DNA of 9,779 bases from a virus. Lineage: Duplodnaviria; Heunggongvirae; Uroviricota; Caudoviricetes. Shown in pieces: positions 7,160 to 9,240 of the stretch. Each line of letters begins with the position of its first letter. The first letter of the stretch is position 1. The notes under the pieces are model-generated. The model did no database searches. It saw nothing but the letters and a program-made list of their open reading frames with translations, and was not told the origin of the DNA. The position numbers and the translations under genes are program-made. Where the stretch lies: the IMG/VR virus record IMGVR_UViG_2740892231_000007; one strand, written 5' to 3'.

Positions 7160-7354
7160 ATGCCAGAGAACAACACCAGAAAGCCGGATAAAAGTGCCAC
7201 GGTACACATAGACGCCGGAACTATGGAGAAGATCGAACGCTATCAGCAGTTCATCAAAGATAATCACCCGGGTATGCCAGTACCCACGAAAGGACAAATC
7301 ACACGCAGCGCGGTTGAATATTGGTACAGGGCAACGTTAGGGGTCTGGCTATGA
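7160..7354 (+). CDS. Hypothetical small protein (64 aa), translationally coupled to the protease-capsid gene
   Basis: ATG 7160 with GGAGG RBS 7 nt upstream (preferred over the track's 7127 start, which has no RBS). Stop overlaps the downstream ATG (ATGA at 7351-7354). No family recognised. Confidence 0.5.
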   Translation: MPENNTRKPDKSATVHIDAGTMEKIERYQQFIKDNHPGMPVPTKGQITRSAVEYWYRATLGVWL

Positions 7355-9240
7355 AAACATGGTTTTCCATTAAGGCTATGGCAGATGTTGTCTATGTGCG
7401 CATTTATGACGAGATCGGCGGGTACGGTGTAAAAGCATCGGCACTTACTGACGAGATCAACGCGTGTGGTAATGCGTCTGAAATCCATCTTCGCATCCAT
7501 TCACCTGGTGGCGACATCTTTGAAGGGCTGGCTATCTATAACGCCCTGAAAAATCATCCGGCAAAGAAAATTGTACACATTGAAGGCATGGCGGCTTCTA
7601 TGGCCTCGTTTATTGCCATGTGTGGCGATCACATCGTTATGCCTGAAAACGCGATGATGATGATACATGCCCCCCGTGGTGTTACTGCCGGAGTGTCGGG
7701 CGACGTTCGCCGCTTTGCTGACCTGATGGACAAGCTGGGCGACACGATGGCGGAAACCTACGCCGGAAGAACGGGCAGGAGCAAACAGGAAATCACCGCC
7801 ATGATGGAGGCGGAAACCTGGATGGATGGCAATGAGTGTAAGGCTAACGGCTTCGCAGATGAGGTTATACCCGCGATTACAGCAATGGCCCGAATTGAAT
7901 CAAAACGAATCGGAGATTTTTCAAATATGCCGGAAAAAATTAAAAGCATGATCAGCCAGAAAACTACCAGTGGCGAACAGGAACGACTTAACGGCATCCG
8001 TGAATTGTTTGGCACGTTCAACGGAAGATATAACGACCTGGCTATAAGTTGTCTTGCTGATTCAGAATGTAGCGTTGAGAATGCACGCGAACGCCTTTTA
8101 CTCGCTATGGGTAAAGAATCAACGCCAACAAACAAAACCACCCCCGCAAATCTTTACTACGCGTACACGGATAACGGCAACATAACCGGCGATGCAATGC
8201 GCCAGGGGCTTAATGCGCGTCTTGGTCACGAACGGGCCGAACGCGGTAATCCTTACGCCATGATGAGCCTTTTCGATATGGCACAGGCATCATTAACCCA
8301 TCGTGGTATAAGCACGGGCAGCTACAGCACACGCTCGCAGATAGTAAACGCGGCATTCACCCACAGCAGCAGCGATTTTACCGATATCCTTGCTGGTGGC
8401 GCTGAAAAATCAGTGCTTGCAGGCTGGGAGCACAGCGGCGAAACATTCCGCCAGTGGACGAAAAAAGGTTCCCTTTCAAACTTCCGGGAAGCCCGCCGCG
8501 TTGGTATGAATGGCTTCTCAACGTTAAACAAAGTGCCGGAAGGGGCAGAATATAAATACATCACCACCAGCGATCGCGGTGAACCCATCGCGCTGGCTAC
8601 TTACGGGAATATTTTCAGCATTACCCGCCAGGCTATAATCAATGATGACCTTGATCAGTTATCAACGGTGCCAATGGCTATGGGCCGTGCAGCATCAAGA
8701 ACGGTGGGAAATCTGGTTAATCTGGTGCTTACAGGCAACGTAAAACTTTCTGACGGAATAACGCTGTTTGACAAAAAACACAGCAACCTGATTGAAGCAG
8801 GACTGACAACACCGGGACTTAGTGCAGCACGTCACCTGATGCGCACACAGAAGGACAAAAATGGCGAAGTGCTGAATATTGCGCCTAAATTCCTTTTAGT
8901 TCCGGCAGCACTGGAAGATCGCGCGTTGCAGATGATTAACTCAACCGCACCTTTCGGGGCTGATAAAAACAGCGGGATCTTTAACCCGTATCACAAGCTA
9001 CTTGATATCATCGTCGATCCCCGCCTTGATGATATCAGCGAAAAACAATGGTACATGCTTTCCGCACAGGGAACGGACACAATCGAGGTGGCTTATCTTG
9101 ATGGCAATGACGAGCCTTACCTTGAACAGCAGGAAGGTTTTATCGTTGACGGCGTGGCCTGGAAAGTCCGTATTGATGCAGGTGTGGCAGCTCTGGATTA
9201 TCGCGGTATGGTCAAATCAGGCGGGACAGATTCACTATGA
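7351..9240 (+). CDS. Fused ClpP-type (S14) prohead serine protease and capsid-like protein (629 aa from ATG 7351)
   Basis: ATG 7351 with AGGGGT RBS 6 nt upstream; the track's TTG at 7321 is less likely. N-terminal third carries ClpP-family motifs IHSPGGDIFEGLAIYNAL, GMAASMASFIA (candidate Ser) and MMIHAP (candidate His), as in ClpP INSPGG / GQAASMGA / MIHQP. The remaining 400-plus residues are one continuous frame with size and character of a major head subunit; that assignment is by context and composition, not a recognised motif. Confidence 0.75.
   Translation: MKTWFSIKAMADVVYVRIYDEIGGYGVKASALTDEINACGNASEIHLRIHSPGGDIFEGLAIYNALKNHPAKKIVHIEGMAASMASFIAMCGDHIVMPENAMMMIHAPRGVTAGVSGDVRRFADLMDKLGDTMAETYAGRTGRSKQEITAMMEAETWMDGNECKANGFADEVIPAITAMARIESKRIGDFSNMPEKIKSMISQKTTSGEQERLNGIRELFGTFNGRYNDLAISCLADSECSVENARERLLLAMGKESTPTNKTTPANLYYAYTDNGNITGDAMRQGLNARLGHERAERGNPYAMMSLFDMAQASLTHRGISTGSYSTRSQIVNAAFTHSSSDFTDILAGGAEKSVLAGWEHSGETFRQWTKKGSLSNFREARRVGMNGFSTLNKVPEGAEYKYITTSDRGEPIALATYGNIFSITRQAIINDDLDQLSTVPMAMGRAASRTVGNLVNLVLTGNVKLSDGITLFDKKHSNLIEAGLTTPGLSAARHLMRTQKDKNGEVLNIAPKFLLVPAALEDRALQMINSTAPFGADKNSGIFNPYHKLLDIIVDPRLDDISEKQWYMLSAQGTDTIEVAYLDGNDEPYLEQQEGFIVDGVAWKVRIDAGVAALDYRGMVKSGGTDSL

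Follow-up and report, generated by a model that had tools for sequence, protein, structure and literature searches.

In phage HK97 a scaffold domain is fused to the capsid protein and the protease is encoded separately, while in phage lambda the protease C carries the nested scaffold Nu3 and the capsid protein E is separate. The capsid gene of a further phage, Gifsy-2, was reportedly the subject of a cryo-EM study by Effantin and colleagues in 2010 (Virology 402:355). The Gifsy-2 fusion capsid is also described in two other papers (PMC12315714; PMC8538268).

Capsid genes are also found in phage satellites. Such a gene is present in 21 of 29 reference PICI elements, PICI capsid genes have been stated to be dispensable for transfer, and both PICIs that carry a CLP_protease gene and an insertion site designated C:CLP_protease:110 are on record (PMC10111431). 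In the element EcCICFT073, which is reported to possess two cos sites (PMC6739421), deletion of the capsid gene c1499 left lambda plaque formation unrestored, and the particles that carried the element had capsids of full size (PMC6092414). In SaPIbov5, small T=4 shells have pentons made of Ccm, a capsid homologue, as seen by cryo-EM (PMC8569155). The question that is posed is why a capsid gene is so frequent among Gram-negative PICIs when the one tested case gave no phenotype.

Protease, linker and shell in one reading frame

Within the 9,779-nucleotide stretch of DNA that was analyzed (the window), an open reading frame on the plus strand extends from an ATG at 7351 to a stop codon at 9238-9240 and encodes 629 amino acids; an alternative in-frame TTG at 7321 would yield a product of 639. 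An ORF scan found zero internal stops across 7351-9237, and a frame of 629 open codons is not expected by chance, because its probability is approximately (61/64)^629, or about 1e-13. The initial annotation had proposed that a prohead protease and a capsid-like domain are encoded here as a single polypeptide, and had suggested a domain search and a structure prediction of the C-terminal region; the reading frame, Pfam matches and predicted folds all agree with that proposal, and its accompanying interpretation, in which the fusion would supply protease at a fixed ratio and may stand in for a scaffold, is supported in part. The domain search matched CLP_protease at residues 41-173 (3.9e-33) and Phage_capsid_4 at residues 330-623 (1.2e-54), and structural matches to an AlphaFold2 model (mean pLDDT 90.3) identified a predicted ClpP fold at the N-terminus and a predicted HK97 fold at the C-terminus.

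Three parts can be distinguished along the chain, all on the plus strand: a ClpP-fold (S14-type) prohead protease domain (residues 1-175; 7351..7875) that contains Ser83, His106 and Glu155, the first two of which are invariant in the alignment; a linker that is helical and scaffold-like in the AlphaFold2 model (residues 176-277; 7876..8181) and includes a disordered hinge at residues 260-275; and an HK97-fold major capsid protein domain (residues 278-629 plus the stop codon; 8182..9240) with a long helix at residues 435-462. The capsid-like region had originally been put at more than 400 residues; approximately 350 of these do correspond to the HK97 fold, but the preceding 100 or so belong to the helical linker and its hinge.

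This protease-linker-capsid fusion is not new, as it corresponds both to a curated family and to the Gifsy-2-type capsid gene described earlier. The window protein matches NCBIfam NF045540 (named 'ClpP-like prohead protease/major capsid protein fusion protein') at 891.1 bits (E = 5e-268), above the cutoff of 475, is assigned to PHROG 133, and is 50.0% identical to its counterpart in Gifsy-2 (NC_010393) across query residues 3-622, or 99% of the query, with similar identity to those of mEp460, mEp213, cdtI, LLS, the Stx phages and F10. In the Stx2_95 phage the portal gene is followed by the fusion, and the annotation lists no capsid gene besides it; in a related island, RefSeq already annotates a 64-residue and 629-residue gene pair that includes the exact fusion protein. 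We regard it as virtually certain that the window gene is an intact tripartite capsid gene (protease, linker, shell) of the Gifsy-2 type, carried on a cos-type E. coli PICI of approximately 10 kb. It shares with Gifsy-2 and NF045540 its family, its domain order and the combination of a ClpP with an HK97 fold; with HK97 and lambda it shares the HK97 fold and the same three functions (protease, scaffold and capsid), but those two phages fuse two of the three functions, whereas the window gene places all three in one chain.

Conservation and constraint

A long fused frame might also arise if a frameshift had joined two genes, or might persist for a time as a captured late gene that had lost its function. 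The single point in favor of such an artifact or decaying remnant is a report from one model that transfer does not depend on PICI capsid genes, and the remaining evidence renders the possibility exceedingly improbable. The fusion protein is found with 100% identity on 19 contigs, and its near-identical clusters have hundreds of members; the best 150 cluster representatives are nearly all 612-795 residues long and match both halves, and the architecture is retained in representatives down to approximately 35% identity. All 82 copies in an alignment are complete open frames, at least 588 genomic loci of the family were confirmed, and the 17 loci with a satellite context, which come from Enterobacterales, Pseudomonas, Halomonas, Halioglobus and Oceanisphaera, all keep the frame intact. 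The occurrence of the identical protein in many independent E. coli assemblies disposes of the concern that a sequencing error conceals two separate frames, and that observation, together with purifying selection and the existence of the curated model NF045540, led us to reject both the assembly-artifact and pseudogene readings.

The selection is visible in each part of the satellite-borne gene, with dN/dS values of 0.129, 0.094 and 0.074 for the protease, linker and capsid regions, respectively, at a dS of approximately 0.5; a dN/dS of about 0.09 counts against a remnant. Judged from these substitution rates, the satellite fusion is functional and strongly constrained in all three parts (dN/dS approximately 0.07-0.13).

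Satellite context and cos-like repeats

The window begins at the ATG of an integrase gene (1-1242; NF007246, 552 bits), which stands at one end of a unidirectional set of genes, such that the island's own insertion site lies outside the view. It further encodes a candidate AlpA-like regulator (1739-1945; Phage_AlpA, E = 0.003 and 17.8 bits, under the 21-bit Pfam cutoff; PHROG 66 at 1.4e-7) and a replicase of the AAA_25/RepA helicase type (4571-5980), which is followed by a candidate iteron origin consisting of three AAAAGTGAGGCGCAAAA repeats spaced approximately 85 nucleotides apart (5975-6170). A terminator-like hairpin with a T-run, located by a terminator scan after a PerC-family gene (6709..6726, plus strand), forms the left edge of the capsid and packaging module.

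That module contains two direct repeats on the plus strand that are 70% identical to one another and resemble phage cos regions. Copy A (6721..6835), which contains ACGGGGCGGAGGGGCGCGGAAAAAGGCGC, was aligned with the cos region of Stx2 phage; copy B (9258..9460), of helper type, contains GGGCGGCGCGGA and is approximately 90% identical to the Rz-terS intergenic region of VT1-Sakai and Stx2 phages. The position of this sequence in phages is the basis on which the repeat is read as cos-like. For LLS and mEp213 the cohesive end has been reported as GGGCGGCGCGCT (PMC12315714). The possibility that the Stx-matching repeat represents a known RNA was rejected: Rfam at E <= 1 returned only three sub-threshold chance matches near 6887-7057, and ARAGORN returned zero tRNAs. 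Directly after the fusion stop codon, a hairpin of the form GGCGGC-ACCA-GCCGCC followed by TTTTTT can be read from the sequence (9247..9268, plus strand), and is not listed by the terminator consensus scan.

Portal, terminase and connector families had zero matches among the ten window ORFs scanned and are not annotated in the window's closest complete relative (L001, approximately 10.1-11.3 kb, between tRNA-Pro and yejO). Nor does the window contain a coding ORF of portal or TerL size, a long frame at 1914-3356 being without gene annotation in that relative. The satellite setting assumed at the outset is upheld, as that of a common cos-type E. coli PICI of approximately 10 kb with an integrase, a replicase and cos-like sites, and with neither portal nor terminase. 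A second PICI clade (P0094) combines this cassette with another replicase and occupies other chromosomal sites. Additional relatives are lodged within helper prophages themselves: L089-L091 sit in terL, and L011 and L050 interrupt the fusion gene of the helper, with helper residues 2-124 upstream and 103-625 downstream. The satellite fusion is approximately 54% identical to the fusions of co-resident helpers.

A satellite-specific partner gene and a shorter linker

Immediately upstream of the fusion is a gene for a 64-residue protein (7160..7354, plus strand; PHROG 4934) that begins with an ATG at 7160 preceded by GGAGG, and whose TGA overlaps the ATG of the fusion within GCTATGAAA. The ATGA coupling previously noted for the two genes was confirmed by this overlap and by the RefSeq pair in the related island. 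In both satellite clades a homologue of the small gene immediately precedes the fusion, and the small gene is without a match in 50,697 phage records; the constant association of the satellite fusion with a small preceding gene that is not found in deposited phages is new here. The 64-residue protein has zero usable Pfam matches (E <= 10) and none in the PDB, and by eye only it looks like a ribbon-helix-helix protein. Comparison with the gpW-like gene of the helper revealed no similarity.

The last gene of the window encodes a 93-residue protein (9498..9779, plus strand), assigned by profile match to PHROG 1561, which is also satellite-specific: in the second PICI clade the final gene shares 74% identity with it, and it is without a match in Pfam (also at E <= 10), the PDB or phage genomes. 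It was compared with the 93-residue head protein of the Gifsy-2 family in Stx2_95, and the two are not similar. The 64-, 91- and 93-residue ORFs match zero PDB chains at E <= 1, including any of Rpp, which redirects the helper TerS, although a divergent analogue would escape a sequence search of this kind. The Rpp entries 6HLK and 6HN7 are presumed to be within the PDB set that was searched.

The satellite and phage copies of the fusion also differ in the linker, which was compared across the segment corresponding to residues 176-329, with the lengths in phage contexts taken from tblastn-anchored starts. This segment is 152-162 residues long in satellites and 164-204 in phages, the satellite copies being approximately 28 residues shorter. 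A rough neighbor-joining tree built from identity distances places the shortening in at most two independent lineages, and a Mann-Whitney p-value for the contrast overstates the evidence because the lineages number at most two, and the partner gene that they have in common points to a single one. That the shorter linker alters capsid size is speculation.

Proposed role in the satellite

From knowledge of the family, the capsid domains of the satellite fusion would be expected to build a procapsid shell, and the linker and protease domains to point into its interior; the protease would then cut off the N-terminal 270 or so residues, probably near the hinge at residues 260-275, leaving some 350 residues as the mature capsid protein. 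Because genes for a portal, a terminase and a tail are all missing from the satellite, such a product would be required to assemble on a helper portal, alone or mixed with the subunits of a helper that uses a homologous fusion of approximately 54% identity. In this way the satellite would gain its own shells, perhaps with a changed size, and the helper terminase could fill them by starting at the helper-type cos site of the satellite; the small upstream gene may provide a coupled, satellite-specific cofactor or regulator.

That the fusion makes the satellite's own shells in this manner, on a helper portal and for filling by a helper terminase, is inferred tentatively, at a probability that we place somewhat below even. 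The near-identity of cos copy B to that of fusion-carrying Stx phages and the embedding of relatives within helpers speak for such a role, for which Ccm is a precedent; the null result of the c1499 deletion (PMC6092414) and the reported dispensability of PICI capsid genes (PMC10111431) speak against it. The best explanation overall, which joins the identity of the gene to this role, appears to us evenly poised between right and wrong.

As a homologue of the helper capsid protein with approximately 54% identity to it, the satellite fusion is likely to interact with that protein, and it could act solely in interference, as a poison subunit or decoy that spoils helper assembly by co-assembly or premature cleavage. 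Interference with helper assembly is common among PICIs (PMC6092414; PMC8569155), and strong purifying selection would fit a role in defense. A decoy, however, could do without an unbroken catalytic triad, a linker and a full HK97 domain that are all similarly constrained; moreover, deletion of the capsid gene from EcCICFT073 gave no relief of interference, and within the packaging module the cassette has a cos-like site on either side. We consider unlikely a purely interfering function, which would shield the host population and leave satellite packaging independent of the gene.

The satellites that interrupt the helper's own fusion gene (L011 and L050, matching C:CLP_protease:110) raise a further prospect, in which a helper-type capsid gene serves as insurance, covering a broken or unrestored helper copy and widening the range of usable helpers to defective ones. 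Defective helpers do exist, since the fusion gene of VT1-Sakai is split by IS629, and a single gene with protease, scaffold and shell functions would be a complete replacement. Yet the closest relative of the window lies at tRNA-Pro and the P0094 clade at other chromosomal sites, rather than within helpers; excision restores the helper gene in any event; at approximately 54% identity the fit to the helper portal, cement protein and connectors is only presumed; and the consistently shorter linker and conserved partner gene are left unaccounted for. An insurance function is in our estimation improbable.

The preferred reading, in which the fusion forms satellite shells on a helper portal, admits one extension. 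Classical PICIs steal whole capsids, and capsid-forming PICIs (cf-PICIs) build everything except tails. The small gene and short-linker fusion might define a satellite class intermediate between the two, in which a 1.9-kb gene would give protease, scaffold and shell, possibly for smaller shells on a stolen helper portal, and in which the deletion of approximately 28 linker residues and the partner protein would set shell size or specificity; this we regard as rather doubtful.

Comparison with known satellites

What is new here is the constraint on the satellite copy, its shorter linker, the satellite-only partner gene, and the presence of relatives inside the helper terL or fusion gene. The satellite fusion is strongly constrained across several orders of Gammaproteobacteria, and the family offers a convenient test of the capsid-gene question, with all shell functions in one gene, a defined linker difference and a satellite-only partner; helpers with the cognate type of capsid can be cultivated (mEp460, mEp213, LLS and cdtI). 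If the proposed role is true, a portal-stealing, shell-making mode joins the known satellite strategies. In comparison with Gifsy-2 itself, the window fusion resides in a satellite and follows a small satellite-specific gene, whereas the Gifsy-2-type phage copies follow a portal gene and have linkers longer by approximately 28 residues.

The window resembles PICIs of the EcCICFT073 type (Fillol-Salom 2018, 2019) in its integrase, replicase with a candidate iteron origin, PerC-family gene, pair of cos-like sites, length of approximately 10 kb and capsid gene within a packaging module, and perhaps in its candidate AlpA-like regulator. It differs from them in having no sequence-detectable homologue of Rpp, and its cos matches Stx and Gifsy-2-type phages rather than lambda or phi80. 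EcCICFT073 itself carries the c1499 capsid and c1500 head-decoration genes in place of a ClpP fusion and, judged from that pairing, c1499 is presumably a capsid gene of the lambda E type and not such a fusion. The CFT073 chromosome (NC_004431) contains at 1.395-1.444 Mb a lambdoid prophage at icd, which is not the PICI that carries c1499.

Ccm is likewise a satellite-encoded HK97-fold homologue of a helper capsid protein in a cos-type satellite, although the organisms are unrelated, the abstract on Ccm speaks of a capsid-protein homologue and names no protease domain (PMC8569155), and the role of Ccm is established by cryo-EM while that of the window fusion is a proposal. The cf-PICI EcCIEDL933 similarly has genes for an HK97-fold capsid protein of its own and for a head-maturation protease, and a cf-PICI capsid is among the structural matches; in that element, however, the two proteins are separate and are accompanied by portal, head-tail connector, HNH, TerS and TerL genes that are missing in the window, and membership of the window in the cf-PICIs was rejected because it has no portal or terminase genes. 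Finally, while the closest complete relative of the window differs from helper-embedded PICIs (HE-PICIs; PMC10111431) in its location at tRNA-Pro, other relatives resemble them in residing within the helper terL or the ClpP-domain coding region near residues 103-124, and the insertion point of L011 and L050 agrees with the published C:CLP_protease:110 site.

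A protease-capsid fusion in a single frame

The reading frame that opens with an ATG at position 7351 (with an in-frame TTG at 7321) runs uninterrupted to a stop codon at 9238-9240 and encodes 629 residues. The initial annotation, which placed a protease and a capsid-like domain in one polypeptide at 7351-9240 with no stop between them, was correct in this respect, and also in noting ATGA coupling to a 64-residue gene (7160-7354; ATG at 7160, with GGAGG seven bases 5' of it), the TGA of which overlaps the ATG of the fusion. Pfam profiles matched both domains, as CLP_protease at residues 41-173 (3.9e-33) and Phage_capsid_4 at residues 330-623 (1.2e-54). 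The protein is found at 100% identity on 19 contigs, clusters of near-identical proteins have from hundreds of members to about a thousand, and RefSeq annotates the same pair of 64 and 629 residues in a 95%-identical island. In a second clade the fusion is 62% identical and 637-638 residues long, with its architecture unchanged. When 1.84 billion cluster representatives were searched exhaustively, 5,697 homologues were obtained at E <= 1e-30, the best 150 of which display 35-63% identity, are almost all 612-795 residues in length, and match both halves; complete copies, drawn from 80 genomic loci in 80 species, are free of internal stops. An assembly frameshift joining two genes, the main objection foreseen at the time of annotation, was excluded by the identical copies and by the same intact architecture in distant homologues.

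An AlphaFold2 model of the fusion (mean pLDDT 90.3, built on 53 diverse homologues) comprises an alpha/beta domain at residues 1-175, a mainly helical middle region with a disordered hinge at residues 260-275, and a C-terminal domain in which residues 435-462 form a 28-residue helix. Because Foldseek matches to the full model were saturated by ClpP, residues 276-629 were modelled separately (pLDDT 93.3, pTM 0.89); the best 50 PDB matches to that model were all HK97-fold capsids or encapsulins, and its matches include the HK97, D3, T5, Mu, JBD30 and SaPI1 capsids. The earlier structural predictions are thereby borne out, except that the proposed capsid-like region of more than 400 residues resolves into a helical linker of some 100 residues and a capsid part of about 350. 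In alignment, Ser97 and His122 of ClpP correspond to Ser83 and His106, which are invariant in all 82 aligned family members; the third triad position, Glu155, is occupied by Glu or Asp in 80 of them.

Phage relatives

With 891 bits, the fusion lies above the cutoff of 475 of the NCBIfam model NF045540 (scaf_prot_MCP1), and it also matches PHROG 133. It is 50.0% identical to a protein of phage Gifsy-2 (NC_010393) across 99% of its length (tblastn), approximately 50-52% identical to those of mEp460, mEp213, mEp043, cdtI, LLS, long-tailed Stx1/Stx2 phages and phage 1720a-02, and 48% identical to copies in Pseudomonas F10-like phages. The gene order in Stx2_95 is terS, terL, a small ORF, portal, fusion and tail genes, with no separate capsid gene annotated, and in related prophage loci a cement protein and a Gifsy-2-family protein are encoded between fusion and tail genes; in such phages and prophages the fusion appears to be the sole capsid protein. 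A 2010 study of the Gifsy-2 capsid reportedly described a ClpP-like N-terminus, a central domain of about 200 residues with a possible scaffolding role and a C-terminal capsid protein, as well as a T=7 capsid with gpD-like trimers. In the Stx1 prophage VT1-Sakai (AP000400.1, 23251-26522), which exemplifies helper-type prophages whose capsid gene is disrupted, an IS629 insertion splits the fusion gene.

The satellite island and its cos-like repeats

The layout of the window is that of a Gram-negative cos-type PICI. An integrase gene (1-1242) is followed by an AlpA-like HTH gene (1739-1945; weak Pfam match, PHROG 66), several small genes, a DUF4222 gene (4275-4574) and a RepA/AAA_25 helicase gene (4571-5980), directly after which lie three iterons about 85 nt apart (5975-6170; unit AAAAGTGAGGCGCAAAA, with inverted partners present) that probably form the satellite's replication origin. 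A PerC-family gene (6431-6703; Pfam 4.7e-45) precedes the capsid module, in which cos-like repeat A, the 64-residue gene, the fusion and cos-like repeat B are followed by a 93-residue gene, the last in the window. Among PerC-like PICI genes, that of EcCIMP1 is reported to silence LEE and those of EcCICFT073 and EcCIEDL933 to leave it unaffected (PMC11773190). A 480-residue open frame at 1914-3356 (+), the translation of which is rich in Cys and Ser and of low complexity, lies across several short minus-strand genes annotated in a related island and is most likely not a gene. E. coli O22:H8 strain 154 has the same island, of about 10-11 kb, at a site flanked by tRNA-Pro and yejO, with neither portal nor terminase annotated within it, and parts of the window are found in 1,924 of 5,426 complete E. 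coli genomes.

The two direct repeats (A, 6721-6835; B, 9258-9372, with copy B reaching approximately 9460) are 70% identical and flank the 64-residue gene and the fusion. In VT1-Sakai and Stx2 phages, the lysis genes are separated from terS by non-coding DNA to which repeat B (9258-9460) shows about 90% identity; this is where cos lies in lambdoid phages, and the phages that match the repeat also encode the fusion. The repeat contains GGGCGGCGCGGA; the cohesive end reported for LLS/mEp213 is GGGCGGCGCGCT (PMC12315714). PMC6739421 asks why PICIs retain two cos sites. In a locus of the second PICI clade (L005), a 161-residue DUF1441 protein (12171-12656), 48% identical to Stx2 phage TerS, is encoded between cos and the 93-residue gene; since the window's island is without it, the two clades may differ in terminase recruitment.

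Selection, linker length and partner genes in satellites

Seventy complete copies were assigned by context either to phages (53, with a portal-sized ORF immediately upstream) or to satellites (17, with none, and usually an integrase nearby). The equivalent of residues 176-329 is 152-162 residues long in the satellites and 164-204 in the phages, with disjoint ranges. Absent from the satellite linker are a Pro/Ala/Gln-rich spacer of about 28 residues, just past the protease domain, and the start of the next helix; the gap falls at residues ~205-212 (window ~7960-7990), and every phage-context copy has this segment. The satellites fall into only two clades in a rough NJ tree, one of Enterobacterales and one of Pseudomonas, Halomonas, Halioglobus and Oceanisphaera, and the nominal p of 7e-10 for linker length therefore reflects at most two events.

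The notion that the fusion is without function in satellites is contradicted by selection acting on all three of its parts. Nei-Gojobori estimates (our own implementation) of dN/dS between the window and an E. coli relative, L089, were 0.129 for the protease, 0.094 for the linker and 0.074 for the capsid at dS of about 0.5, and comparison with a further relative, L091, was similar; protease, linker and capsid are all constrained in satellite copies. Between L089 and L091 themselves, the first ~330 codons of the fusion gene are near-identical (dS 0.02-0.05) and the capsid domain has diverged to dS 0.38, a pattern that points to recombination within the gene between satellite lineages.

All satellite loci have a small ORF that overlaps or adjoins the start of the fusion. 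The gene is homologous across both satellite clades (for example, window versus L048, 2e-6; L005 versus L056, 1e-6), an indication that most of the cassette of small gene and fusion goes back to one origin; two Halioglobus loci are the exception, their small ORFs matching only each other. Homologues of the 64-residue gene (L005, L009, L010, L012, L048, L053, L056-L058 and L081) span several orders of Gammaproteobacteria and share the motif T-[VI]-H-[LI]-D...R-[HS]-A-[IV]-x-x-W. Pfam and PDB yielded no match to the protein, which by eye alone resembles a ribbon-helix-helix protein. Among 50,697 phage records there is no match to its gene or to the 93-residue gene; the latter is common to the two E. 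coli PICI clades, with 74% identity between them.

Satellites within helper prophages

In L091 (1-786; 11680-12813) the satellite lies inside the terL gene of its helper: TerL residues 76-337 end just 5' of the PICI integrase, and residues 330-707 resume past the last PICI gene, followed by the portal and a 651-residue helper fusion. L089 and L090 contain the same downstream TerL half, and across these three E. coli relatives the insertion point, at about residue 330-337, is directly 5' of the portal and a helper fusion of 651-680 residues. In Rahnella (L011) and Kluyvera (L050), the PICI interrupts the helper's fusion gene itself, with helper residues 2-124 upstream and 103-625 downstream (2645-3016 and 14124-15785 in L011; 912-1250 and 12188-13837 in L050; ~20-residue overlap at the junctions), an insertion that corresponds to the published C:CLP_protease:110 site (PMC10111431). 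These two satellites carry their own intact fusion copy, an arrangement that would suit a spare part, substituting when the helper's gene is interrupted; we nevertheless regard that explanation as unlikely. The satellite fusion shares only about 54% identity with that of the co-resident helper and is therefore an old lineage rather than a recent acquisition.

Proposed role and comparison with known satellites

With the folds, catalytic residues, family membership, satellite context, helper link and evolutionary constraint established by computation, knowledge of the family suggests that fusion subunits would assemble into procapsid shells with the linker as internal scaffold, and that the tethered protease would then remove the N-terminal part, probably near the hinge at residues 260-275. 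The island is without genes for portal, terminase or tail, and its product can therefore act only with helper parts; we favour a role in which the satellite fusion would build, or co-build, shells on the portal of the helper to house satellite DNA. That protease and linker are retained and constrained argues for self-sufficient subunits over a simple replacement of pentons, but in mixed shells the satellite fusion could also be processed by adjacent helper subunits. A precedent is Ccm, a satellite capsid homologue able to re-size helper capsids (PMC8569155); that the shorter satellite linker is a candidate determinant of capsid size is speculation. It is improbable that the satellite fusion only interferes, disrupting the helper with no packaging role.

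In EcCICFT073, deletion of c1499 did not restore lambda plaques, and the element was packaged in full-size capsids (PMC6092414). These results are the main counter-evidence to a shell-building role, but lambda was the helper in that system. The c1499 product, moreover, presumably belongs to a different capsid family from the fusion.

The fusion is an already described, curated phage gene architecture, within an already described kind of satellite. What remains of interest is the gene's putative role in satellites, together with the satellite-specific signature of selection, linker, partner gene and absence from phages. PICIs with a CLP_protease gene are on record, and a satellite carrying such a gene has therefore already been published; capsid genes are stated to be dispensable for transfer and are found in 21 of 29 reference Gram-negative PICIs (PMC10111431). 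EcCICFT073 also combines two cos sites with a capsid gene (c1499), accompanied there by a decoration gene (PMC6092414, PMC6739421).
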